From NCBI GenBank assembly GCA_021825865.1, contig JAKAFU010000001.1:57444-121443 (forward strand): 64,000 nt of DNA, written 5' to 3'. Source of the DNA: a bacterium. Lineage in GTDB: Bacteria > SZUA-79 > Acidulodesulfobacterales > Acidulodesulfobacteraceae. The position numbers and the translations under genes are program-made. The notes under the pieces are model-generated. The model did no database searches and was not told where the DNA came from. It saw nothing but the letters and a program-made list of their open reading frames with translations. The number at the start of each line of letters is the position of its first letter. Position 1 is the first letter of the stretch. Positions 16,052-29,280 of the stretch are shown in pieces.

Positions 16052-16525
16052 TTATTTATTGGACGGCACAGCCTCTGTATCTTTTTTAACCTTTTTGCTA
16101 GCTGCCGACTTGGTTTTGGCAGGCTGGCGTTTTTTTACTTTTGCATCCGAAGGACTGGATGAAACAGCCTTTTTTGATTTAACAGTTTTTAACTCTGCAG
16201 GTTGTTTTCTTTTTACAGAAGAAGTTTTTTTTGCTGTTACGCGGCTATATTTATTTTTTGCGGATGCTAAAGGATTTTCCAAGGGACTAATATTTTGTTT
16301 ATTAGTTAATTGATTATTATCATGCACTTCCGCAGCGTCATTTTTACCGTCCGTTTTGTCATCCATCGGATTATTCATCTGGTCTTTAAACTCTGAAGTA
16401 GCCTTTTTAAATTCCCTTAAACCTTTTCCCAGAGACTTTCCGATATCCGGCAATCGCTTAGGTCCGAATACCAGCAAAGCAACTACAATAATAATTATGA
16501 TTTCGGGAGTTCCTATTCCAAACAT
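16052..16525 (-). CDS. tatA: Twin-arginine translocase TatA/E-family protein with a long basic tail
   Basis: N-terminus [42 protein letters not shown] is canonical TatA (TM plus amphipathic helix). The remaining roughly 100 aa is Lys/Ser/Ala-rich. Confidence 0.85.
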
Positions 16526-16645
16526 TTTACCTCCTATTTCTCTTATATCTTTAAATTATAACACATTAAAATAAAAAAACAATAAAGCGGTTTAATTATA
16601 TTTTTATATTTTATTTTCAATTTTAAAATAATAAAATAAAATAAT

Positions 16646-16661
16646 TGTCCATTTTGGGACA
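16646..16661 (+). promoter_or_regulatory. Dyad TGTCC-N6-GGACA, candidate enhancer (UAS) for the sigma-54 activator
   Basis: Read directly: TGTCCATTTTGGGACA, about 125 bp upstream of the -24 GG at 16779. A one-mismatch copy (TGTTC-N6-GGACA) lies upstream of the second sigma-54 promoter. Confidence 0.4.
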
Positions 16662-16777
16662 CTATATATTGCGCCTAATCGTACTATTTAGTTTAATTAA
16701 AGCAATTTAATCCGAGAAATTATTTTTAAATTAAATCATTATAGATACTTATAAAAACAGTGCATTATTTTTATATT

Positions 16778-16792
16778 TGGCATTATATTTGC
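16778..16792 (+). promoter_or_regulatory. Sigma-54 (-24/-12) promoter
   Basis: TGGCAT-TATAT-TTGC, against consensus TGGCAC-N5-TTGC. GG-to-GC spacing is correct. It lies 78 bp upstream of the thioredoxin-like gene start (16870). Confidence 0.6.
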
Positions 16793-16869
16793 TAATATAT
16801 AAAAAAGCAATACATTATTAGATATTGTTAGAAAATTAAGATAAAATCTAATTTTTAATAAAGGACAAA

Positions 16870-17373
16870 ATGAAAATTTTAATATTATTGATTATGACTT
16901 TTAACTTTTTAGTTATGCAAAATGCATATGCTCAAAATATACCAAAATTTCAAAAAATTAAATGGATAGGTTTTAAAAAGGCTATTTTTTTAAATAATAA
17001 AATTAAAAAACCATTTTTTTTAGAATTTTATGCGCCTTATTGCGATTATTGTATTCAAATGGACAAAAGAGTATTTTATAAAAAAAAAGTGATAAAAATT
17101 ATTAATAAATATTTTTATCCGGTCAAAATTAACATTGAAGGAAATAAAACGGTAAAATTTTTTAATGGAAAAATTTATAGTAAAAAGCTATTATCTATAA
17201 AACTCAATGTTATGGGGACACCGACGGCAATTTTTTACAGTTCAGGGTTAAAAAAAATTTTTACTCTGCCGGGTTATTGGAATGAAGATGATTTTGTTTT
17301 AGTTACCAGATGGATAGCAAAGAAAAAATATAAAATAGAGTCATTGCGTAAATACTACAAGGAGACAAAGTAA
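16870..17373 (+). CDS. Periplasmic thioredoxin-fold protein (SoxW-like / Thioredoxin_7-like)
   Basis: 167 aa. Signal peptide ..VMQNAYA|Q, redox motif FYAPYCDYCIQM (CxxC), and ..GTPTAIFY.. (the cis-Pro region of the Trx fold). Confidence 0.7.
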   Translation: MKILILLIMTFNFLVMQNAYAQNIPKFQKIKWIGFKKAIFLNNKIKKPFFLEFYAPYCDYCIQMDKRVFYKKKVIKIINKYFYPVKINIEGNKTVKFFNGKIYSKKLLSIKLNVMGTPTAIFYSSGLKKIFTLPGYWNEDDFVLVTRWIAKKKYKIESLRKYYKETK

Positions 17374-17826
17374 ATGGGGAAAATAATAAATTATTGTAAA
17401 ATTAAGAATTTGTTCTTACTATATGTATTAATATCTATGGCGGTTATCTTATGCTCCGTTAAAATTTCTTTTGCTCTTAAATCTCCAAAAACTCTTAGCG
17501 AAGCAATAAAAACAGGCAGAGCGTATTTTTTTAAACCTTACGGTGTAAACGGCAAATCTTGTGCGACATGCCATTTATTAGATAAGAATGTAAAAAAAGG
17601 TAAAATAACTATAAAAGCTATAAAAGGTATCGCTAGATTTTTTCCTAAATGGAAAAACAATAAAATTTATACACTAAAGGAGCAATTGGTGCACTGTATT
17701 GTTTATGGAGAAAACGGTTTTAGACCTAAAAAAGATTCTAATATCATAAAATATCTAGATTTTTACCTATATTACTTGTCTAATGGTTATAGAATAAAAG
17801 TTATCCCATCTAAAAACACGCATTAA
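17374..17826 (+). CDS. Monohaem c-type cytochrome, SoxA-like
   Basis: 150 aa. N-terminal hydrophobic signal, a single CXXCH (SCATCH, His67), and a conserved-looking ..TLKEQLVHCIVYGENG.. with Cys108 lying 41 residues after the haem His. Its start abuts the stop of the upstream Trx-like gene. Confidence 0.6.
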   Translation: MGKIINYCKIKNLFLLYVLISMAVILCSVKISFALKSPKTLSEAIKTGRAYFFKPYGVNGKSCATCHLLDKNVKKGKITIKAIKGIARFFPKWKNNKIYTLKEQLVHCIVYGENGFRPKKDSNIIKYLDFYLYYLSNGYRIKVIPSKNTH

Positions 17827-17883: not shown

Positions 17884-18366
17884 ATGTATATATTTTTAAA
17901 ATTTATATTGTTGTTACTAATTTCTTTTTCTGTTGTATCAATTTACAGCAGAAATGCTTTTTCTTCAACTAATCAAAAAATAAACACGGTTTCTTATTTT
18001 CAGCATAAGACACTAAAAGAATTATATGTGGTGTCGCAGAATCCTAAAAAATGGCCGTTGCTTTTATCCGATATAAGCAACGCAATTATTTATTCTAACA
18101 GATATTTTTTTAGATATAAGATTATTGTAGTTGGTTACGGCCCCGGAGGAATTAAATTTTTTATGAATAAGTATGATAAAAAAAATTATCCCACCATTCA
18201 GAGTTTTCACACTTACGGCGTTAAATTTGTTACATGCCATTTGACCATGAAAACATTAGGTATAAAAAAATCGCATCTGTTCAAATTTGTAAAAATCGCT
18301 TATCCCGGTGCCGTTTTTTATATATTTAAATTGAAAAGCCAAGGATATGTTAATATTAATTATTAG
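17884..18366 (+). CDS. DsrE/DsrF-like (COG1416-type) protein with signal peptide, paralogue A
   Basis: 160 aa. Signal peptide ..SRNAFS|S, and core ..YKIIVVGYGPGGIKFF...YGVKFVTCHLTMKTLGIKK..L..FVKIAYPGAVFYIFKLKSQGY... Roughly 50% identical by eye to the ORF at 28807..29280. Confidence 0.6.
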   Translation: MYIFLKFILLLLISFSVVSIYSRNAFSSTNQKINTVSYFQHKTLKELYVVSQNPKKWPLLLSDISNAIIYSNRYFFRYKIIVVGYGPGGIKFFMNKYDKKNYPTIQSFHTYGVKFVTCHLTMKTLGIKKSHLFKFVKIAYPGAVFYIFKLKSQGYVNINY

Positions 18367-18478: not shown

Positions 18479-20164
18479 ATGCTTATTACCTTGAAATCCC
18501 GTTTATATTTTGGCTCGGTTATTATTTTTTTAATTATTTCAATTATTTTTTTTTTCATTCTACGGTATGTTTATTTTTTAAGAAGCGCTTCTTATAATCA
18601 AGAAGCAATAAGTCTTACCTCAATTTCGTTAGTAAAAATCCAAAGGAATGTTCTAAATATAATAAGCTTAGAACATATAGAGAAATATAAAAAAGAAATA
18701 GCAAAATTGAGGAATAAACCGTTTGATAGTAATGTAATCAGCTTGCAGATAGAAAAAATTATAAGAAATACAAAAGAAATTCAAAAAGAGAACATGCTTT
18801 CTCTTAACGGGTACGTTGACGGATTTAAAAAAGAAAAATTCATTTCTATTTTTGGAATAAAAAAATCATTACTGAGAAGGTATAAAAATAAAAAAATAAA
18901 TTTAAAACTAAAAATGTTAAGGAAAGAATTGCTGTCTCATAGAAAAGTCCTTTTTAAAATTACAAGCAATCCGTCCCGTTACGGTTTAATTTATTCTCCA
19001 TCATATATAAAAAAAATGATGAATCCGACTATTAAAAGCGTAGAAGATATAGGTGCGGTGATAACTAAAAAAGTTGCGGATAAAATAAAAGTTTTGTATT
19101 TCAGTTTTATAATAATTCCATTTTTTCTGTTGATAATTCTATTTTTAACCAGTGTATATTTTAAGAAATCTTTCGTTGATAAACTTGAAATAGTAATAAA
19201 AAAAATAAAAGATATAGCGCAAGGAGATTTAATGCAGAAAATAAATATTGTCATGAATCCAAAAAATGAGATTGGAGCCTTAGTAATGCATGTAAATACA
19301 TTAATAGAATCTTTAATAGCAAATGTCAAAAGTATTAAAAAAACTTCATCAAATCTTTCCACCCATGGTGAAGAATTATCAGATTCGTCCAGAGAACTTG
19401 ATAATAATATAAATATTATGAAAACAAAAACTATCGCAATTATTGATTCTATAAAACAGATAAGTTCAGCGGTGGTTGAGATTGCAAAAAATATTTCATC
19501 GGCTAATACTATTGTTAAAAATACTCAGGAAGAAACGGGAAAAGGAACTGATTTAGTTAAAAATGTTATTTCTGAAATGAAGTATATAGATAATGAAGTA
19601 ATAATTGTAAACGATGCAATAAAAGATCTCGGAGTGTCATCTGAAAAGATTGGAGAAATAACGGTTGTTATTGATGAAATTGCCGACCAAACTAATCTTC
19701 TTGCTCTTAATGCAGCAATTGAAGCGGCTAGAGCCGGAGAACAAGGAAGAGGATTTGCAGTTGTGGCAGATGAGGTAAGAAAATTAGCCGAAAGAACAAC
19801 AAAAGCAACAAAAGAAATTACTAACATGATAGTTACGTTGCAGAATGATGTTGCAAAAGCCGTTAAATCAATAGAAGCCGGACGAAATAAAGTATTAAAA
19901 GGGGTGGATGCAGCAAATCTTGCAGGAAACTCAATAGATGAAATAAAATCTTTGGTCGATATGGTTACCGATATGATTACAAGAATTGCGGCGGCAACAG
20001 AAGAACAATCAAATATTTTGGAAGAAATATCCGCCTCGTCTGAATCTATTATGCTTGAGCAAGAGAAAAGCTTAAATACGGGAAAATTGGTTGATATATC
20101 TTCATCGGAGCTGTCTCAGTTATCAATGGCATTAAATAAACAAATCGGAATTTATAAAATATGA
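18479..20164 (+). CDS. Methyl-accepting chemotaxis protein (2 TM, periplasmic sensor domain, HAMP, MA domain)
   Basis: 561 aa. RBS AAGGAG upstream. TM1 ..[15 protein letters not shown].., TM2 ..[19 protein letters not shown].., HAMP ..[12 protein letters not shown]...NEIGAL... Highly conserved signalling hairpin ..[43 protein letters not shown]... Confidence 0.9.
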
Positions 20165-20225: not shown

Positions 20226-21623
20226 ATGCTGAAATTTATAAACGATATTAGCTTAAGAACTAAACTCCTTTTTTCATCTTTTGTTGTCTTATTTTTTATA
20301 ATGATTACCGTTAACTCTATTGCTTTGTACACAATTTATGCTACGCTTGTTTATAGAAATACTTTAAGGAATAATGCACGGAAAAAAATGTGCGTATCGC
20401 AACTAAAATTTTCATTATTGCATAAAGATATTACATCTATAAAAAATATTTTTTATGAAACCCATAAGAATAGGTATATTAACTATCTATATATCAGCAT
20501 ATTAAAAAATAATAAGATAGGCATAAAACATCGGCTTTATTTTGGCTTATATAATGAAAAATTAATAAAAAATATTCCTCCGAATTTAATAAAGCACGAT
20601 AATAAAATCATAGGAAAAGTTTATGTACAATTTAATATTAAAAAAGAATTGCAGTTAATAAGACTAAGGGTTTTTTGGGTTGCGATGAGGTTTTATCTTA
20701 TAAGTTTTATTTTTATATGCATAGGTCTTGTCATATTTTATTTTATAATATCTAAAATTACAGAGCCTCTTTTATTACTTAAAAGCAACATGACGAAAGT
20801 ATCCAATGGAGATTATTCAGTTCATATACAACCTAGTTCTAAAGATGAAATTGGAAGTTTAGCTGATATTTTTAATTCTATGATTAAAAATATAAAAGGA
20901 TATATTAATAAAATAGATTTAATTAGTAAAGAAAGGGAGCAATTAAATTGCATGGCACAGATGGGAGAAATGTCTAGTATGGTAGCGCATGAGATTAAAA
21001 ATGCAGCTTATGTTATTAACTCTAGTAATAAATATATAAAAAATAATCTTCATGCTAAAGATAAAAATTTGATAGAATTTATTAATATTATAGAAGAGGA
21101 ACTAAAAAGACTTAATAATATGACTGTAGGTTTTATGAATTTTGCAAAACAAAGAGAACCAAAATTAGCCGACATTAACTTGAATTATATAATAAATGAA
21201 TCACTCCAGATATTAAATTATGAAATAAAAAATGTCAATATAAAAATTATAAAACAGTTAGATAATTCTATCGGATTAATAAAAGGCGATAAGGAATTAT
21301 TAAAGCAGGTTATTATTAATTTGCTTATTAACGCAATGGATGCAGTTAGCAACGTAAACGACCCTGTGATAAAAATAATAAGTTCTACAGTACATAAAAA
21401 AGATGAAATATCAATAAGCATATCGGATAATGGAGAAGGTATAAAAATTTTGAATATAAATAACGTATTTAAACCCTTTTTTACAACTAAGAAAAGCGGA
21501 ACCGGTTTAGGGCTTGCTATATCTTCAAGAATTGTACTTTTGCATAAAGGATTAATTAAAACTGAAAGAATAGATGGATTTACTGTTTTTACAGTTATAC
21601 TCCCAAGGCGGATAATTTTATAA
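20226..21623 (+). CDS. Sensor histidine kinase (TM-sensor-TM-HAMP-HisKA-HATPase), NtrB/AtoS-like
   Basis: 465 aa. HAMP ..VSNGDYSVHIQPSSKDEIGSLADIFNSM.., H-box ..MSSMVAHEIKNA.., N box ..NLLINAMDA.., G boxes ..DNGEGI.., ..GTGLGLAIS... Confidence 0.88.
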   Translation: MLKFINDISLRTKLLFSSFVVLFFIMITVNSIALYTIYATLVYRNTLRNNARKKMCVSQLKFSLLHKDITSIKNIFYETHKNRYINYLYISILKNNKIGIKHRLYFGLYNEKLIKNIPPNLIKHDNKIIGKVYVQFNIKKELQLIRLRVFWVAMRFYLISFIFICIGLVIFYFIISKITEPLLLLKSNMTKVSNGDYSVHIQPSSKDEIGSLADIFNSMIKNIKGYINKIDLISKEREQLNCMAQMGEMSSMVAHEIKNAAYVINSSNKYIKNNLHAKDKNLIEFINIIEEELKRLNNMTVGFMNFAKQREPKLADINLNYIINESLQILNYEIKNVNIKIIKQLDNSIGLIKGDKELLKQVIINLLINAMDAVSNVNDPVIKIISSTVHKKDEISISISDNGEGIKILNINNVFKPFFTTKKSGTGLGLAISSRIVLLHKGLIKTERIDGFTVFTVILPRRIIL

Positions 21624-21660
21624 TATTTTACTTTATTATACTTTAAGTTAATTTTATATC

Positions 21661-23007
21661 ATGAGCAGAATACTTTTAATTGACGACGAGAAAAATATTT
21701 TAAAAACTGTCGGTTCAAATCTTGAACAAAACGGTTTTAATGTTGATGCAGCCATTAGCGCAGAGGTTGCCCTTGCAAAGTTGGACAGCAATAACTATGA
21801 TGTGATACTTTGCGATTTAATATTAACAGGGATGAACGGATTAGATTTCTTGAGTCTTGTAAGAAATACTAATAAAGATATTATATTTATAATGATTACG
21901 GCAAACGGTTTTATTGACGATGCTGTTAAGGCAATCAAAATAGGAGCCGATGATTTCATAAGCAAACCGATAGATATGGACGGCTTAATTAGTAATATAA
22001 ACATTTTGCTAAGCAAAAAGGCAAACTATTACAATGAAAATAAACCGCAATTTGACACTAAGTTGATTTACAAATCTAAAATTATGGAAGATTTGATTAA
22101 AGAAATAGGAATGATTGCTAAGGCTCCTTCAAATATTCTAATAACGGGCGAAACAGGTACCGGCAAGGAATTAATAGCAAAAATTATTCATGAAATATCA
22201 GGAAGAAAAGGACCTTTTGTCGGAATTAATATTAACGCATACCCTGATAGTTTAATAGAAAATGAACTTTTCGGTCATGCAAAAGGGTCATTTACAAACG
22301 CCATAAACACACAAAAAGGAAAATTCGAACTTGCGTCCAACGGAACATTGTTTTTAGATGAAATTGGAGAAATGCCGTTGTTTGTTCAGTCAAAATTGTT
22401 AAGAATATTGCAGGAGCGTGAATTTTCAATGATAGGTTCTAATGCTGTCATAAAACTGACTGCAAGAATTGTAAGTGCAACAAATATTAACATAGAAAGT
22501 GCCGTATTGCAGAATCAATTTAGAGAAGACTTGTTTTATAGGATAAATGTATTTCATGTAAAGGTCCCTCCGCTCAGGGAACGGAAAGACGATATCATGC
22601 CGCTTGTGTATTATTTTATAAAAAGATTTAATGCGGAAAACAAAAAGAATATAGTTAGTATATCAAAAGATGTTGAAGAAAAATTAATGCAATATAATTT
22701 TCCGGGCAATATAAGGGAACTTGAAAATATAATTGAGAGAGCTATTATCATTACTCCTTTTGATACCATTGAAGTAGATAATTTACCAAATTATTTAAAA
22801 AAAACAAGAGAAGTCCAGTCTATTTTTATGTCTTCCAATAATAATACAGATTATGATTTAAATTTGGATTCGGTAGAAAAAGAACTTATAATTAAGGCAC
22901 TTGAAAAATATAATTATAATCAGACAAAAACAGCTGCTTCTATCGGTATATCCAGAAAACAACTACGAACTAAAATGAAAAAATACGACCTTTTTAATAA
23001 ACGATAG
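21661..23007 (+). CDS. Sigma-54-dependent response regulator (REC-AAA+-Fis HTH; NtrC family bEBP)
   Basis: 448 aa. Receiver ..ILLIDDE..DVILCDLILTGMNG.., Walker A GETGTGKE, loop-1 GSFTNA (variant of GAFTGA), ..LFLDEIGEM.., ..RLNVFHVKVPPLRERKDDI.., C-terminal HTH ..NQTKTAASIGISRKQLRTKMKKY... Confidence 0.93.
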   Translation: MSRILLIDDEKNILKTVGSNLEQNGFNVDAAISAEVALAKLDSNNYDVILCDLILTGMNGLDFLSLVRNTNKDIIFIMITANGFIDDAVKAIKIGADDFISKPIDMDGLISNINILLSKKANYYNENKPQFDTKLIYKSKIMEDLIKEIGMIAKAPSNILITGETGTGKELIAKIIHEISGRKGPFVGININAYPDSLIENELFGHAKGSFTNAINTQKGKFELASNGTLFLDEIGEMPLFVQSKLLRILQEREFSMIGSNAVIKLTARIVSATNINIESAVLQNQFREDLFYRINVFHVKVPPLRERKDDIMPLVYYFIKRFNAENKKNIVSISKDVEEKLMQYNFPGNIRELENIIERAIIITPFDTIEVDNLPNYLKKTREVQSIFMSSNNNTDYDLNLDSVEKELIIKALEKYNYNQTKTAASIGISRKQLRTKMKKYDLFNKR

Positions 23008-23118
23008 ATTATTTTAAATCTAAAATTTAACGGTTGTCGCAAATTAAACTTGATTTTAATTTTTAATAAATAAGGTCGAGCCGATTGGTATCTGGAAAAG
23101 TCCTTTTGTGCACTATAT

Positions 23119-23134
23119 TGTTCTTGTATGGACA
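23119..23134 (+). promoter_or_regulatory. Dyad TGTTC-N6-GGACA, candidate enhancer (UAS) for the sigma-54 activator
   Basis: Read directly: TGTTCTTGTATGGACA, about 72 bp upstream of the -24 GG at 23198. The adjacent ATGGACAATT (23128..23137) is the reverse complement of AATTGTCCAT at 16643..16652. Confidence 0.4.
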
Positions 23135-23196
23135 ATTAATTCTCCTAAAAACAATTGATAGTCGATATAAATCTGGAACTATGCATAATCTTATTA

Positions 23197-23211
23197 TGGC
23201 ACGGTATTTGC
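23197..23211 (+). promoter_or_regulatory. Sigma-54 (-24/-12) promoter, perfect consensus
   Basis: TGGCAC-GGTAT-TTGC read directly. It lies 118 bp upstream of the OMP start (23329) and immediately downstream of the bEBP gene. Confidence 0.7.
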
Positions 23212-23328: not shown

Positions 23329-25089
23329 ATGCGATTGAAATCAATCTGTATTGGTGCGGTAATATTTTATTTTTTGGTATACTTATGCAATCCTGTTACC
23401 GTGTTTGCAATTAAGCTTAAAAAACAGCAAATTAAACCGCCGCATAGCGGTCTTAGTTTTATGCTTGGAGGCAGGTATATAGGCGCGGCTCTTTATGCCG
23501 AGAATCAAGGGCAAGGATTTCAAAATGTTTCAGGATATCCGAATAATAATTCATTTCAAGAATTTGCCCAAATGTTAAGGGTTAATACATTAATTAAATA
23601 TAAAAAACTTATAAGTTTATATACCCAGTTTGCACTTTCAAGCGATTATAACGGCATTGCAAACTATTATGGCGGAATTCCCCCTGGATTCCAAACGCTG
23701 GCTCAAAATCCTGTGCCGGTCGGTTTTAATAATGATTTTGATACATTTGGCATTAGAGAAGTTTATATTAATTTAAGATTGCCAAATCAATATTTCAGAC
23801 ATATTATATTTGGCAGAACATTTTTGCATTTTGGTCTCGGAGTAGCTATAAGAACAGATGTTGATGGTATATTTGATAATTTTAATGTCGGCAATTTTAA
23901 TATAACCGCAGGTACCATGATAACATCGATGGCAGCTGCCGGGACATATTGTTATTCTTCAAACAAACTCAATCCTTGTAACACATTGCAAGGACTTGCC
24001 GGAACAACCGAAGGGTTTTATCCGACCTCTGCCATGGGCTATACCCATGTGCAAATGGGAACAATCCCTGTGATTCAATTCATAACAAAAAAACCCGTAA
24101 GGCATACGATTTTTAGCGCATGGTTTTCAGAGGCGCATCTTAATCAATTTCAGGCTCCGTTATATAATGTGCCAAATTCTGTTTATTTTCAAACATTTGG
24201 TTCATATACTAACGACAATAATTTTTGGCCTACCCTTAACATTACTTTGGCGGGCGGTTCGTTATGGTATGAAAACGGCAAAAATAAGCTTGCGATTGAA
24301 TTTGATTATCTCAGAGGTAAAGCTATGCCGACGTCGGCTGCTTTGTCTGATGGACTGCTTAATAGTCGCTCCGCTAATCATTATTTATGGACCCAGTGGG
24401 GAGGAGCTAACCCGAATTCTCCGCTGACTGCTCCTTTGCTGGTTGAACCGGCAGGCAACAATGCTTACGACACTATTAATTCATACGATATTTATGCCAA
24501 AGGCTCAACATTAACGAGCATTAAAAAGATGCCTCTTATGATAGGATTTAAATTTGGGCTTGGTGCTCCGGTAGAGGCAGGTTCATATGACATGTCCGAT
24601 TATTCAAGGGTTCAAAATCAACCTACTTTATTTGGCAATCTTATAACTTCTAACTGGCAGATGATACAGATACTCGCCCCCGGAAATAGTTATATGTATG
24701 GTGCACCGTTGTCTTCCAATCTGGAAAACAAAAGAATTGAAGAGATTTTATTCAGAGAGTTTTTACCTGATAAAAATAATTTAACTGAAGCTGTGATACA
24801 GGCTAACTGGGTAAAATCAAATATACATGTAAACGGCAAATATGTTCCTCTTTTTGGCGGAAGCAACATAGGAACAGAATTTGACCTCGATTTTGTGCAT
24901 GTTATTAAAAAAGGTTTTTTCTGGAAAGCTTGGGCGTCTTATATGTTCACAGGAAGAGGACTTGAGACATTTTATGGTCCGGGTAATTATTCGTCCGGCT
25001 GCGTAACTAGTGCTTCAACCGCATGCTTAGATACTGCGACGCATAAAAATATAGCTGCAGTAGGCACTGCTATTGTATGGAATTTTTAA
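23329..25089 (+). CDS. Predicted outer-membrane beta-barrel protein / porin of unrecognised family
   Basis: 586 aa. RBS AGGAGG. Signal peptide ..NPVTVFA|I. Gly/Asn/Tyr/aromatic-rich alternating composition. C-terminal ..GTAIVWNF (terminal Phe, the OMP sorting signature). Confidence 0.55.
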   Translation: MRLKSICIGAVIFYFLVYLCNPVTVFAIKLKKQQIKPPHSGLSFMLGGRYIGAALYAENQGQGFQNVSGYPNNNSFQEFAQMLRVNTLIKYKKLISLYTQFALSSDYNGIANYYGGIPPGFQTLAQNPVPVGFNNDFDTFGIREVYINLRLPNQYFRHIIFGRTFLHFGLGVAIRTDVDGIFDNFNVGNFNITAGTMITSMAAAGTYCYSSNKLNPCNTLQGLAGTTEGFYPTSAMGYTHVQMGTIPVIQFITKKPVRHTIFSAWFSEAHLNQFQAPLYNVPNSVYFQTFGSYTNDNNFWPTLNITLAGGSLWYENGKNKLAIEFDYLRGKAMPTSAALSDGLLNSRSANHYLWTQWGGANPNSPLTAPLLVEPAGNNAYDTINSYDIYAKGSTLTSIKKMPLMIGFKFGLGAPVEAGSYDMSDYSRVQNQPTLFGNLITSNWQMIQILAPGNSYMYGAPLSSNLENKRIEEILFREFLPDKNNLTEAVIQANWVKSNIHVNGKYVPLFGGSNIGTEFDLDFVHVIKKGFFWKAWASYMFTGRGLETFYGPGNYSSGCVTSASTACLDTATHKNIAAVGTAIVWNF

Positions 25090-25236: not shown

Positions 25237-25800
25237 ATGAACAAAAATATTAGGCAGTTTGCCGATGACGGCGAGAAGATAGTATTAAATACAAATAAAA
25301 TAACAAGAAGGGATTTTATAAAAAAAACAATTTTAACGACTGCTTTGACGATAGGAGCAAGTTCAATATTGAATGTTCCGAGAGATTCTTTTGCCAAAAG
25401 CATTTCACTTAAGCCGGTTAAGATGAAAACAAATTATGTTAAAACCATTAATGGGAAAGAAGTAAAGTGGATTGCTAATCCGACTGCCGAAGAAAAATTG
25501 CTGATTCCAAAAATAAGTCTCCCATTAATTGCGCAGGACGGGGCTATGGTGCCGATAAAAATGGAAGCCAAAAAGCCGCAAACCGACAATTTATATTTAA
25601 AAACTTTTTATATATGCGATTTAAATAATCCGCACCTATTGTTGGGTTCATTTGACTTGACGCCATTTAACGGTAAAGCGTATATTTCTACCAGAATAAA
25701 ATTGATGCAAGAGTCATATGTTCAGGTTCTGGCAGAATATTCCAATAATGAAGTTTATGGTGCAAGGAAACTTGTTAAAGTGACCGTAGGAGGATGCTGA
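25237..25800 (+). CDS. soxY: Sulfur-carrier protein SoxY (Tat-exported)
   Basis: 187 aa. Twin-arginine signal ..KITRRDFIKKTILTTAL... Immunoglobulin-like body. C-terminal swinging arm ..KLVKVTVGGC followed by TGA. Directly upstream of soxZ. Confidence 0.85.
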   Translation: MNKNIRQFADDGEKIVLNTNKITRRDFIKKTILTTALTIGASSILNVPRDSFAKSISLKPVKMKTNYVKTINGKEVKWIANPTAEEKLLIPKISLPLIAQDGAMVPIKMEAKKPQTDNLYLKTFYICDLNNPHLLLGSFDLTPFNGKAYISTRIKLMQESYVQVLAEYSNNEVYGARKLVKVTVGGC

Positions 25801-25886: not shown

Positions 25887-26216
25887 ATGAAAATTGGAAC
25901 GATAATGGTAAGGGTGCCGAGAAAAGTAAAAAAAGGAAAAAATTTTAAAGTTTTAACTTTAACAGAACATCCTATGAATACAGGGCTTGTGAAAAATTCT
26001 AAAACAGGTAAAATTATACCCGAATGGATAATTAATAAAGTTAATATATTCTATGATAAAAAATTGATAACAACATGTAATTACGGCATAGGAATTGCGG
26101 CAAATCCTTTTTTAGCGTTTTATGTAAAGGCTGAAAAAAGTGCACCGTTAGATTTTGTAATGCATGACAACAAAGGCAATGTATATAAAAAATCTGTTCT
26201 GATAAATGTTTATTAA
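25887..26216 (+). CDS. soxZ: SoxZ, partner of SoxY
   Basis: 109 aa. ..VRVPRKVKKGKNFKVLTLTEHPMNTGLVKNSKTGKIIPEWII..ANPFLAFYVKA.. matches the SoxZ pattern (..HPMETG..G..IP..). Confidence 0.85.
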   Translation: MKIGTIMVRVPRKVKKGKNFKVLTLTEHPMNTGLVKNSKTGKIIPEWIINKVNIFYDKKLITTCNYGIGIAANPFLAFYVKAEKSAPLDFVMHDNKGNVYKKSVLINVY

Positions 26217-26240: not shown

Positions 26241-26726
26241 ATGAAAAAATTTATTGTTTTATTTTTATTTGTAATTATTTATTGCGGAGGTTCGGTCAAC
26301 AATGTTTTTGCTTTAAGTAAAAATAATAATAAAGCATTTTATATATTAAAAATAAAAAAGAGGTTTAAAGATGTTGTCTTCAATTTAAAGCAATCCATAA
26401 TAAATGATAATTATGTTATAGTTTCAGTAAATCCTATTTCTCAAGGTATACAAGGCATAGGAAAAAAAATATCAAAATTAGATGTCATTGAATTTTGTAA
26501 TTTATCTTACGCATACGATATTCTAAACGGCAATAAAAATTATGCGGCTTTTATGCCATGCAGAGTCGCTGTATATAAACAAGGAAAATATGTAGTTATT
26601 ATAGGATTTTTACCATCCTTTGCACTTAAATTTTTTAAAAATAATACTCCTATGATGAAAAAAACAGCATTGAAAGTAAGTCGTCAGATGGTGAGCATTA
26701 TAAATTCAGTAAAAGATGGTTTTTAA
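26241..26726 (+). CDS. DUF302-domain protein with signal peptide
   Basis: 161 aa. Signal ..VNNVFA|L. ..AAFMPCRVAVYKQGKYVVI.. resembles the DUF302 core motif (..lPCrv.vye..g..). Confidence 0.65.
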   Translation: MKKFIVLFLFVIIYCGGSVNNVFALSKNNNKAFYILKIKKRFKDVVFNLKQSIINDNYVIVSVNPISQGIQGIGKKISKLDVIEFCNLSYAYDILNGNKNYAAFMPCRVAVYKQGKYVVIIGFLPSFALKFFKNNTPMMKKTALKVSRQMVSIINSVKDGF

Positions 26727-26904: not shown

Positions 26905-28593
26905 ATGGAAAATACTGTTACAAGAAGAGATTTTTTAAAAAAAACTGCACTCCTTACAGGCTATTTAGCGATTAATCCTGTAAATTTGCTTAAGTATAAG
27001 CCTGTAGGGAATCTCACTATCATTTGGAATTCAGATTCCCATGCGCATTTAAAACCGGTATTGTATAGGGAACCGTCAGTAAATATAGGTCCTAAAATCA
27101 TGAACGGCAGACCCGGTCATTTAGTCGGAGATTCTTTCTGTCTGTATTATGATATAAACCCAAAGTCGGCTATGGGATATTTTTGTTCTTACAAAAATTT
27201 TAATAACCTATCTAAGGAATATGGACCTATGGGCGGATATGCTCATATGAGCACGGTAATAAATAAAATTAGGGATGAAAGATATGGCAAAACTATATTA
27301 CTTGATACCGGCGATTCATGGCAAGGAACCGGCATTGCTCTTTTGACGAAAGGAAAGGCTGTCTATACTGTTCAAAATGCGATGGGTTATGACGCAATGA
27401 CCGGGCATTGGGAATTTACTTACGGAAAGGAACAATTGCTGGAAAATATAAAAAATCTAAATTTCCCTTTTATTGCCCAGAATGTAAAAAATGCAACATG
27501 GGGAAATTTAATTTTTAAACCATATATTATAAAGGAAGTTAATGGGCTAAGAGTGGGTATAATCGGACAGGCATTCCCGTATGTTCCGCTTGCGCACCCG
27601 GCTCATTTTGTCGAAGGGTGGTCATTTGGCATAGATACCCACCATGCCCAAAAAATGGTAGATCAATTAAAAAATACTGAAAAAGTTGATATCGTAGTTG
27701 TACTTTCACATAACGGACTTGAAGTTGATAGAAAATTTGCAGCTTTAATTAAGGGCATAGATGTAATTGTGGGAGGTCATACCCATGATATTCTTCCAGC
27801 ACCTGAAATTATAAACAATACCATAATAGTTCAGGCAGGAACCCATGGAAAATTTATCGGAAGATTAGATTTAAATGTTTCAAATAAAAAAATTACGGCT
27901 TATGACCATAAGCTTATACCTATTGTCTCAAATTGGATTAAACCGGATCCTAAAATTACGCAGGTCATAGAAGACGAATTTAAACCCTATAATAATATAT
28001 TAAATGAGAAATTAGGGACGACGGAAAGTCTATTATACAGGCGGGCCACATTTATCAGTACGGTTGATAACGTTGCAGAGCAGGCTTTTATAGAAAAATT
28101 TGATGCTCCATTGTTTTTTGCCCCCGGTTGGCGTTGGGGGGAAACTTTGCTTCCAGGTTCCGATATTACTATGGAAAATGTTTATGGCGAATATGGAACA
28201 ACTTATCCTGAGGTTTACAAAACCCTTCTTACGGGAAAACAGTTATTATTATCGCAATTAAGTGTTCTGAGCGATGTTTTTGCGAAAGATGCTTATTTAC
28301 AGATGGGCGGAGACGCCACCCGTGTCTCCAATTCAAAATTTCATATACATATAAATGAATCATTTAATAAGAGAATCAAAAGCTGGGAAATTAACGGAAA
28401 ACCATTAAATTTGAATAAAAAATACTGGGCTGTATCAACAGGCGGAAAAATGCAAAACATGAACTCAGATGATAAAGGGTTAACAAAATTTAAAGCATGC
28501 GATGTTATTGCAGAATACATCAGAAATCATAAAATTATTCAATCAATCCAAACGGAAAAAGTTATATATCGCAAATCGCCAACCGCCGGTTAA
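26905..28593 (+). CDS. soxB: Thiosulfohydrolase SoxB (Tat-exported di-metal phosphoesterase / 5'-nucleotidase fold)
   Basis: 562 aa. Tat signal ..VTRRDFLKKTALLTG... Metallophosphoesterase motifs ..NSDSHAH.., ..TGDSWQGTG.., ..GHWEFTYG.., ..LSHNG.., ..GGHTHD... C-terminal 5'-nucleotidase-like domain. Confidence 0.9.
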   Translation: MENTVTRRDFLKKTALLTGYLAINPVNLLKYKPVGNLTIIWNSDSHAHLKPVLYREPSVNIGPKIMNGRPGHLVGDSFCLYYDINPKSAMGYFCSYKNFNNLSKEYGPMGGYAHMSTVINKIRDERYGKTILLDTGDSWQGTGIALLTKGKAVYTVQNAMGYDAMTGHWEFTYGKEQLLENIKNLNFPFIAQNVKNATWGNLIFKPYIIKEVNGLRVGIIGQAFPYVPLAHPAHFVEGWSFGIDTHHAQKMVDQLKNTEKVDIVVVLSHNGLEVDRKFAALIKGIDVIVGGHTHDILPAPEIINNTIIVQAGTHGKFIGRLDLNVSNKKITAYDHKLIPIVSNWIKPDPKITQVIEDEFKPYNNILNEKLGTTESLLYRRATFISTVDNVAEQAFIEKFDAPLFFAPGWRWGETLLPGSDITMENVYGEYGTTYPEVYKTLLTGKQLLLSQLSVLSDVFAKDAYLQMGGDATRVSNSKFHIHINESFNKRIKSWEINGKPLNLNKKYWAVSTGGKMQNMNSDDKGLTKFKACDVIAEYIRNHKIIQSIQTEKVIYRKSPTAG

Positions 28594-28806: not shown

Positions 28807-29280
28807 ATGAAAAATATATTAAATATAGTTGTTTGTGTGTTCTTCACCATTTTTTTAACTTTTGTATTTATACAAAATTCATATGCAAGAGTTAAAGACA
28901 TAAATGCGTTGAAATATTTTAAACATCATAAATTGAAAGAACTTTATCAGGTACCTCAAAATCCAAAATATTGGAGTTTATTATTGAATAATATTTCAAA
29001 CAACGTTAGAATTTCAGACACGCATTTTATTAATTATAAAATTCTTGTGGTAGCTTACGGTCCTGCTCTTAAACTTTTTATGAAATCTGACAAAAAATAT
29101 TATCCATTACTTCAGAGTATTGCCAGCTATGGCGTGAAATTAGTAGCATGCCATCAAACAATGTTAGGTATGCATGTAAAAAAATCGCAAATTTTTAAAT
29201 TTGTGCATATTGTTTATCCGGGTGCAATATTTTACATTGTACAAAAAGAAAATGAAGGCTATGCGTATCTGCAGCCGTAA
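28807..29280 (+). CDS. DsrE/DsrF-like (COG1416-type) protein with signal peptide, paralogue B
   Basis: 157 aa. Signal ..QNSYA|R. Core ..YKILVVAYGPALKLF...YGVKLVACHQTMLGMHVKK..FVHIVYPGAIFYIVQKENEGYAYLQP. Paralogue of 17884..18366. Confidence 0.6.
   Translation: MKNILNIVVCVFFTIFLTFVFIQNSYARVKDINALKYFKHHKLKELYQVPQNPKYWSLLLNNISNNVRISDTHFINYKILVVAYGPALKLFMKSDKKYYPLLQSIASYGVKLVACHQTMLGMHVKKSQIFKFVHIVYPGAIFYIVQKENEGYAYLQP

Follow-up and report, generated by a model that had tools for sequence, protein, structure and literature searches.

Several described systems place sox genes under the control of reduced sulfur compounds, and the closest to the one that we describe here is the sigma-54-dependent TspS/TspR system of Acidithiobacillus caldus. 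In the account of this system in a review that cites Li et al. 2017 (PMC6335251), phosphorylated TspR binds TGTCCCAAATGGGACA and activates the sox-II cluster, and thiosulfate is the proposed signal. We took the TspR site from that account. A periplasmic sCache_3_2 sensor has been reported for TspS of the Acidithiobacillia (PMC12194929). Here, we analyzed a 64-kb stretch of DNA (the window) from the genome, designated G000, of a member of the Acidulodesulfobacteraceae. The genome has 1.9 Mb in 74 contigs, 32.8% GC, and 90.5% completeness, and the Asn/Lys-rich composition of its proteins suggests a mesophilic host. Two sulfur operons in the window flank the genes of a sensor kinase and a sigma-54 activator, and an initial annotation had proposed that a shared upstream dyad links both operons into one sigma-54 regulon. 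We found that the dyad has the same arms and spacing as the published TspR site, and for this reason we place the predicted regulon in the TspS/TspR type. It is highly probable that the kinase and activator encoded at 20226-23007 are a TspS/TspR-like system that drives both sox operons through the dyads and sigma-54. The features central to this reading, with the dyads named as upstream activator sites (UAS), are the following, in window coordinates.

16646-16661, no strand: UAS-1, perfect dyad TGTCC-ATTTTG-GGACA, extended as AATTGTCC...GGACAC; proposed site of the TspR-like activator
16778-16792, plus strand: predicted sigma-54 promoter P1, TGGCATTATATTTGC (TGGCAT-TATAT-TTGC), 78 bp ahead of the ATG of the thioredoxin-like gene
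20226-21623, plus strand: sensor histidine kinase, TspS-like (transmembrane segment, small periplasmic domain, transmembrane segment, HAMP, HisKA, HATPase_c)
21661-23007, plus strand: sigma-54 enhancer-binding response regulator, TspR-like (REC, AAA+ [Sigma54_activat], HTH_8)
23119-23134, no strand: UAS-2, dyad TGTTC-TTGTAT-GGACA, right flank GGACAATT; proposed activator site
23197-23211, plus strand: predicted sigma-54 promoter P2, TGGCACGGTATTTGC (TGGCAC-GGTAT-TTGC), 118 bp ahead of the ATG of the gene for a 586-amino-acid outer membrane protein (OMP)-like protein

In arms and spacing, TGTCC-N6-GGACA, the dyad and the TspR site of A. caldus are the same; UAS-1 matches perfectly and UAS-2 with one mismatch. 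In both bacteria, a kinase and a REC-AAA+-HTH_8 activator are encoded beside a truncated sox cluster without soxCD, and a sigma-54 promoter stands ahead of sox genes. This likeness to A. caldus TspR (A5904_2485) rests on the site, the domain architecture, and the gene linkage, and indirectly on a recognition helix that other sulfur-linked activators share. In contrast to A. caldus, the host here belongs to a distant, AT-rich lineage, and its sox genes form two units that flank the regulator genes, each unit with its own dyad and promoter. The cluster here also contains a gene for a methyl-accepting chemotaxis protein (MCP), and the large OMP-like protein opens operon 2. The kinase, unlike TspS, has no sCache_3_2 match in Pfam, and the L1 loop of the activator reads GSFTNA instead of GAFTGA. 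The regulon is of a known kind and brings no new mechanism; what is new is the distant AT-rich lineage, the split layout with two enhancers, and the embedded MCP.

Activators of the NtrC family oligomerize on dyads in a phosphorylation-driven manner, loop the DNA, and open the sigma-54 closed complex at the expense of ATP. NtrB/NtrC, ZraSR, and AtoSC share the domain architecture of the pair in the window, and they act as dimers on dyad enhancers 70 to 150 bp upstream of the -24/-12 elements, often in tandem and in helical phase. They differ in their sensors, in their regulons (sox here), and in their half-sites, which is TGTCC here and TGCACC for NtrC. Control of sox genes by reduced sulfur compounds is also exerted by SoxR of Paracoccus (ArsR family), the CsoR-like TTHA1953 of Thermus, and SulRS of Sulfurimonas (OmpR family). 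These are either repressors of the sigma-70 type or activators of the OmpR type, their binding sites are unrelated, and none of them works with sigma-54.

We annotated the proteins with Pfam and NCBIfam profiles. The activator matched Response_reg (2e-26), Sigma54_activat (1.8e-62), AAA_lid_14 (9.8e-26), and HTH_8 (1.4e-13), and its best NCBIfam similarities were to AtoC, NtrC, and ZraR, all far below the cut-offs. Its recognition helix is ISRKQLRTKMKKY. The kinase gene lies directly upstream of the activator gene, with a gap of 38 bp, and its product matched HAMP (4.4e-11), HATPase_c (4.1e-19), and, weakly, HisKA. An AlphaFold2 model of kinase residues 1 to 235 (pLDDT 74) has a long helix and a small sheet. 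The best Foldseek matches of the model were WalK (TMq, 0.72) and the PDC-type sensor domains of WalK and CitA, and matches of the isolated domain had E values above 0.1. In this moderate-confidence model, the sensor region looks PDC/Cache-like.

The L1 loop, which contacts sigma-54 (window 22261-22278), is GSFTNA in G000 and in its close relatives G003 and G004. Of the ten sox-linked orthologues that we looked at, five have GSFTGA (from the other genera, those of G008, G010, G013, and G018); in the remaining five, the loop did not match the search pattern used. Some relatives in the Desulfobulbaceae have GAFTCA or GAFTNA.

The initial annotation had read TGGCAC-GGTAT-TTGC at 23197..23211 as a consensus -24/-12 promoter. 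We confirmed its coordinates and sequence and found that P2 also fits the extended consensus TGGCACG-N4-TTGCW. P1 and P2 are the sole matches to the strict pattern TGGCA-N6-TTGC in the window (0.48 in shuffles), and the whole G000 genome has 15 matches, with about 6 expected by chance in an estimate from base composition. P1 is invariant in G003 and G004, and the -24 and -12 elements of P2 are kept in G003, G004, and G005. The proteins of these three close relatives are 85 to 99% identical, and the whole cluster is syntenic there. G000 encodes RpoN (Sigma54_DBD, 1.5e-55; contig C19) and about 10 sigma-54 activators, of which the sox-linked activator is one.

For the dyad, we used the pattern TGTYC-N6-GGACA. 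UAS-1 and UAS-2 are its only positions in the window, so that the one-mismatch pair pointed out at 16646..16661 and 23119..23134 is both correctly placed and unique there. A gap of 116 bp separates UAS-1 from the TGGCA of P1, and one of 62 bp separates UAS-2 from that of P2. A scan of the whole genome found five positions: two inside genes, one between convergent open reading frames (ORFs), and UAS-1 and UAS-2 themselves, which lie upstream of strict sigma-54 sites. Each of the two is at most 130 bp upstream of such a site (2 of the 15 sites; Poisson P, ~1e-5 to 3e-5). The position between the convergent ORFs is the only further intergenic one. It reads TGTTCATTATGGGACA (contig C4:1692-1707, outside the window; 13.7 bits in the matrix scan described next) and has no -24/-12 match within 400 bp.

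We also scanned the whole genome with a weight matrix built from 10 dyads of other species or genera only. By this matrix, UAS-1 ranks first genome-wide (23.0 bits), and UAS-2 ranks third, or second among the intergenic matches (17.0 bits). The remaining top matches are in coding DNA, or they are intergenic and have no sigma-54 promoter nearby. The one exception is a paralogous system with a different half-site on contig C19.

These counts bear on the possibility that the shared dyad is a functionless chance likeness in AT-rich DNA and that the sigma-54 promoters are unused or served by other sequences. The initial annotation considered it unlikely that two sigma-54 promoters would have two G+C-containing motifs in common by chance. 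Taken alone, this argument fails: when 181-bp intergenic windows of G000 were paired at random, both members had a 10-mer or longer in common in 56% of the pairs, and an 8-mer with three or more G/C in 14%. Because shared k-mers are this common, we dropped the likeness of the two regions within the window as evidence. A chance reading can also draw on the number of strict promoter matches expected from base composition alone. Against it stand the low count of dyads in window shuffles (only 0.06), the ranks of both dyads by a matrix from other genera, arms that are kept across four genera while the spacers vary, and the fact that the dyad coincides with an activator site defined by experiment. 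We therefore consider chance an extremely improbable explanation. The dyad owes its significance to its symmetry, to its position upstream of sigma-54 promoters, and to its conservation in relatives.

Among G000, G003, G004, and G005, the arms of UAS-2 are invariant and three of its six spacer positions vary; the arms of UAS-1 are kept in G003 and G004. The intergenic DNA of these three closest genomes is too similar overall to decide the matter, and we therefore extended the comparison to other genera, with a set of 10 sox loci (143 kb in total) from four genera of the same family. All 10 loci have a -24/-12 promoter directed into the sox operon, with the dyad or a one-mismatch form of it 50 to 165 bp farther upstream. 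The activators of these loci are 52 to 57% identical or are encoded elsewhere in the genome. With the relaxed pattern TGTNC-N6-GNACA, we found 13 matches in the 143 kb, and all 13 fall upstream of a sigma-54 sox promoter. The consensus across relatives is an extended palindrome, ATTGTCC-N6-GGACAAT. This palindrome accounts for a further observation of the initial annotation, that AATTGTCCAT (16643..16652) recurs as its reverse complement ATGGACAATT (23128..23137): the likeness is real and is part of the palindrome. In several relatives, a second dyad lies 22 or 33 bp from the first, which fits tandem dimer sites in helical phase.

Mostly, the dyad stands directly after the kinase and activator genes, as it does in six relatives from three other genera. 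In G002 and G006, which belong to the same genus as G000, the whole sox operon stands beside gyrB-tatA and keeps the dyad and the promoter, and an 86%-identical kinase-activator pair lies elsewhere, beside queE. It is thus the sox promoter, and not the 3' part of the regulator gene, that the dyad accompanies. This arrangement helps to judge whether the dyads, instead of being protein-binding DNA, are RNA hairpins, for example an attenuator or, at P2, the terminator of the activator gene. A terminator scan lists UAS-1 as a 5-bp stem, and in G008, G010, and G013, the dyad begins within ~15 bp of the activator stop codon. However, the stem is just 5 bp, no T-run follows UAS-2, and G002 and G006 keep the dyad with no regulator gene upstream of it. 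UAS-1 lies upstream of both of its flanking genes (tatA is divergent), and therefore it terminates nothing. The sequence of the arms is conserved, and not mere complementarity, and the spacer is not conserved, which indicates recognition by a protein. We rejected the terminator reading on the terminator scan, the gene orientation, and the G002/G006 arrangement, and RNA hairpins of any kind are a very remote explanation of the dyads.

Phylogenetic analysis placed the sox-linked activators of the family in one clade with 100% SH-aLRT support. This clade is present in all 21 SoxB-positive genomes of the family and in 6 of the 17 SoxB-negative ones (Fisher P, 1e-5, which is overstated because the genomes are related). 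G001, for example, encodes neither SoxB nor an orthologue of the sox-linked activator. The conservation across genera, the independent matrix scan, the co-occurrence of the clade with soxB, and the identity with the TspR site together support the proposal that the two sulfur operons belong to a single sigma-54 regulon. The same lines support the dyad as the predicted site of the regulator encoded at 21661..23007, for which it had been named as the candidate.

The dyads might be genuine sites that are bound by another protein, either a paralogue of the activator or an unrelated dimeric factor (a repressor or co-regulator), with the adjacent activator using other sites. One such paralogue in G000 is encoded on contig C19. 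It is 58% identical to the sox-linked activator and falls inside the same clade, and its recognition helix, ISRKKLITKIK, is nearly the same; the helix of the sox-linked activator differs from those of all other G000 activators. In addition, the regulator genes in G002 and G006 are not beside the dyad, and adjacency is therefore not obligatory. On the other hand, the C19 paralogue has its own kinase, its own sigma-54 promoter, and a different half-site, TGCCC-N6-GGGCA. The dyad follows the sox-linked kinase and activator genes directly in the six relatives mentioned above, its identity with the TspR site argues against another binder, and the absence of SoxB from G001 goes with the absence of an orthologue of the sox-linked activator. 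We consider binding by another protein unlikely, although less so than a chance likeness or a hairpin.

The C19 locus (C19:102651-107575, outside the window) encodes a kinase of 468 amino acids and an activator of 444 amino acids. The pair is divergently transcribed from a sigma-54 promoter, TGGCATATAAATTGC, at C19:105573. Ahead of this promoter stands TTTGCCC-AAATAT-GGGCAAA and, next to it, the palindrome GTCCA-AAA-TGGAC. The gene downstream of this promoter encodes a 545-amino-acid protein with an N-terminal hydrophobic segment and, judged by eye, the look of a beta-propeller (PQQ/BamB-like). The pair appears to be a recent duplicate with a half-site changed from TGTCC to TGCCC.

Several points weigh against assigning the locus to a TspS/TspR-like system. 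UAS-2 has a mismatch in one arm, and each promoter in the window has one strong dyad versus two in several relatives. No sCache_3_2 or other Cache family of Pfam matched the kinase, even at E values of up to 1. The C19 paralogue could in principle cross-bind the sox dyads, though its own promoter carries TGCCC-N6-GGGCA. Finally, the clade of related activators from other phyla, described below, is not resolved in the tree as sister to the Acidulodesulfobacteraceae clade.

According to the TspS/TspR-like model, the kinase would sense a reduced sulfur compound in the periplasm, which the analogy with A. caldus suggests is most likely thiosulfate, and would then phosphorylate the activator. Dimers of the activator would bind the TGTCC-N6-GGACA dyads at 16646-16661 and 23119-23134 and assemble there into an AAA+ ring. 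The bound activator would reach the promoters by looping over ~70 to 125 bp of AT-rich DNA and would remodel the closed complex of the sigma-54 holoenzyme at 16778-16792 and 23197-23211. We infer from sequence that the transcripts start near 16803 and 23222. Unit 1 (thioredoxin-like, SoxA-like cytochrome c, and DsrE-like) and unit 2 (OMP-like, soxY, soxZ, DUF302, soxB, and DsrE) would thus be switched on. Transcription from P1 may also run on through the MCP, kinase, and activator genes, and positive feedback would then result. The split regulon around the regulator genes and the MCP could couple chemotaxis, autoregulation, and sox expression.

The model amounts to a well-supported regulatory annotation for an uncultured AT-rich sulfur oxidizer, in which one kinase-activator pair, two enhancer-promoter units, and at least 11 structural genes make up a single sox regulon. 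It also suggests that a DNA-binding specificity established by experiment in an acidophilic proteobacterium has been kept across very distant bacteria. If so, metagenomes can be searched for sulfur-responsive genes with the dyad and a sigma-54 promoter as a practical key. Searches of this kind would assign the uncharacterized OMP-like protein, DUF302, the periplasmic DsrE-like proteins, and the MCP to sulfur metabolism.

The other genes of the cluster are as follows.

16052-16525, minus strand: tatA, before UAS-1 and P1 in window order and divergent from operon 1
16870-17373, plus strand: thioredoxin-like gene, operon 1
17374-17826, plus strand: SoxA/TsdA-like cytochrome c, operon 1
17884-18366, plus strand: weak DsrE-like protein, operon 1
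18479-20164, plus strand: MCP gene (Pfam MCPsignal, 6.9e-48), between operon 1 and the two-component genes
23329-25089, plus strand: 586-amino-acid OMP-like protein, first gene of operon 2, with no Pfam or NCBIfam family
25237-25800, plus strand: soxY, operon 2
25887-26216, plus strand: soxZ, operon 2
26241-26726, plus strand: DUF302 gene, operon 2
26905-28593, plus strand: soxB, operon 2 (TIGR04486, 2e-191)
28807-29280, plus strand: DsrE-family protein, operon 2

The regulator genes are thus flanked by soxY, soxZ, soxB, and the gene of the SoxA-like cytochrome, and we saw no soxCD in the cluster. After the DsrE-family gene of operon 2, the cluster adjoins queE. The terminator scan found no convincing terminator within the cluster, including between the genes of operon 2. 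The 113-bp gap before the MCP gene holds sigma-70-like matches, which could be a source of basal expression.

In two genera, an MCP gene accompanies the sox two-component genes (42 to 44% identity between genera). In the other genus, its homologue (L067:8139-9830 and L073:3384-5075) adjoins the two-component genes and dyads. This linkage hints that chemotaxis is coupled to the same sulfur signal as the sox two-component system. When we compared the ligand-binding region of the MCP with the sensor domain of the kinase, we found no similarity.

Homologues of the 586-amino-acid OMP-like protein (35 to 46% identity) occur in 21 of the 24 other family genomes searched, mostly outside sox clusters, and some of these loci have sigma-54 promoter matches nearby. 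The proteins encoded at 17884-18366 and 28807-29280 are paralogues of ~160 amino acids with N-terminal hydrophobic segments, each encoded last in its operon, and are likely to be secreted. One of them reaches the Pfam DsrE cut-off (27 bits), and the other is a weak match. Relatives have up to four DsrE-like copies, interleaved with SoxA/X-like cytochromes.

The locus has been rearranged within the genus. G000, G003, G004, and G005 have the sox and regulator loci joined, unlike G002 and G006, where they are apart (L065, L066, L200, and L201). In the joined arrangement, the regulator genes separate the sox genes into two units, each with its own enhancer and promoter. In G006 (L065:8046-8260) and G002 (L066:8262-8477), two divergent sigma-54 promoters flank the sox dyad. 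One is directed into the sox operon; the other, TGGTAT-ATTAA-TTGCA, faces tatA, and tatA may be co-activated with sox in these two genomes. In the window, we saw no sigma-54 promoter ahead of tatA.

A second similarity between the two promoter regions had also been reported, of TTTTGGGACACTATATATTG (16652..16671) to TTTTGTGCACTATATTG (23104..23120). We found that it is present in the window, but our comparison does not support it as a conserved motif. It is confined to the genus, where it is partly conserved, and is absent from other genera; the close relative G004 has the altered sequence CACTAAAC. It also stands on opposite sides of the dyad at P1 and P2. Because CACTATAT... is unconserved beyond the genus, is altered in G004, and overlaps only weak matrix matches, we rejected it as a second motif. 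The second-best matrix scores in the two regions belong to the following elements.

16670-16685, no strand: possible weak secondary site TGCGC-CTAATC-GTACT (6.4 bits, P1 region), low confidence
23099-23114, no strand: degenerate dyad-like element AGTCC-TTTTGT-GCACT (0.1 bits, P2 region), very low confidence

The first is centered 24 bp from UAS-1 and is not significant alone. The second overlaps the second similarity; like it, this element is conserved only in part within the genus and differs in G004. On this weak evidence, the two elements may be degenerate secondary sites.

We looked for the dyad more widely by scanning public genomes for the arrangement dyad-N{86,116}-promoter, with a single gap, and obtained at least 119 loci. 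There was no Acidithiobacillus record among the matches listed. Many of the listed matches are TGTCCG-N4-CGGACA beside activators with a different recognition helix (LTRASLYRR or VSRAALYRK), and these sites belong to other systems. Members of this large separate class (L076-L194) come from Acidobacteriota, Latescibacterota, Aminicenantes, Niveispirillum, Burkholderiales, and others, with the dyad 86 to 116 bp ahead of the sigma-54 promoter.

In Nitrospirota and Desulfobulbales, we found TGTCCC-N4-GGGACA with sigma-54 promoters beside kinase-activator pairs that are 40 to 44% identical to the sox-linked pair. The activators of these pairs have the helix ISRKQLRTKMK, and ISRKQLxTKMK is common to them and to the sox-linked activator. 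Common descent of this cross-phylum class of activators is plausible. We propose, tentatively and at somewhat less than even chances, that the dyad and the helix ISRKQLxTKMK mark one ancient cross-phylum class of sigma-54 systems for reduced-sulfur compounds that was rewired onto different sulfur modules. These modules may be Sox in the Acidulodesulfobacteraceae and Acidithiobacillia, YeeE/YedE with TusA in the Desulfobulbales, and TauE with a molybdopterin oxidoreductase in the Nitrospirota. If this is true, the dyad with a -24/-12 promoter is a genome-wide tag for unknown sulfur genes, such as those of the 586-amino-acid OMP-like, DUF302, and DsrE-like periplasmic proteins.

In metagenome-assembled genomes of Desulfobacterales, Desulfobulbaceae, and Nitrospirae (L192:3983-8000, L130:1-4108, and L154:1-1594), TGTCCC-N4-GGGACA and a sigma-54 promoter, beside a related kinase-activator pair, also stand before other sulfur genes. 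The genes behind these promoters encode a PMT_2-like membrane protein and Sulf_transp (YeeE/YedE) with TusA, or TauE/SafE with a molybdopterin oxidoreductase.

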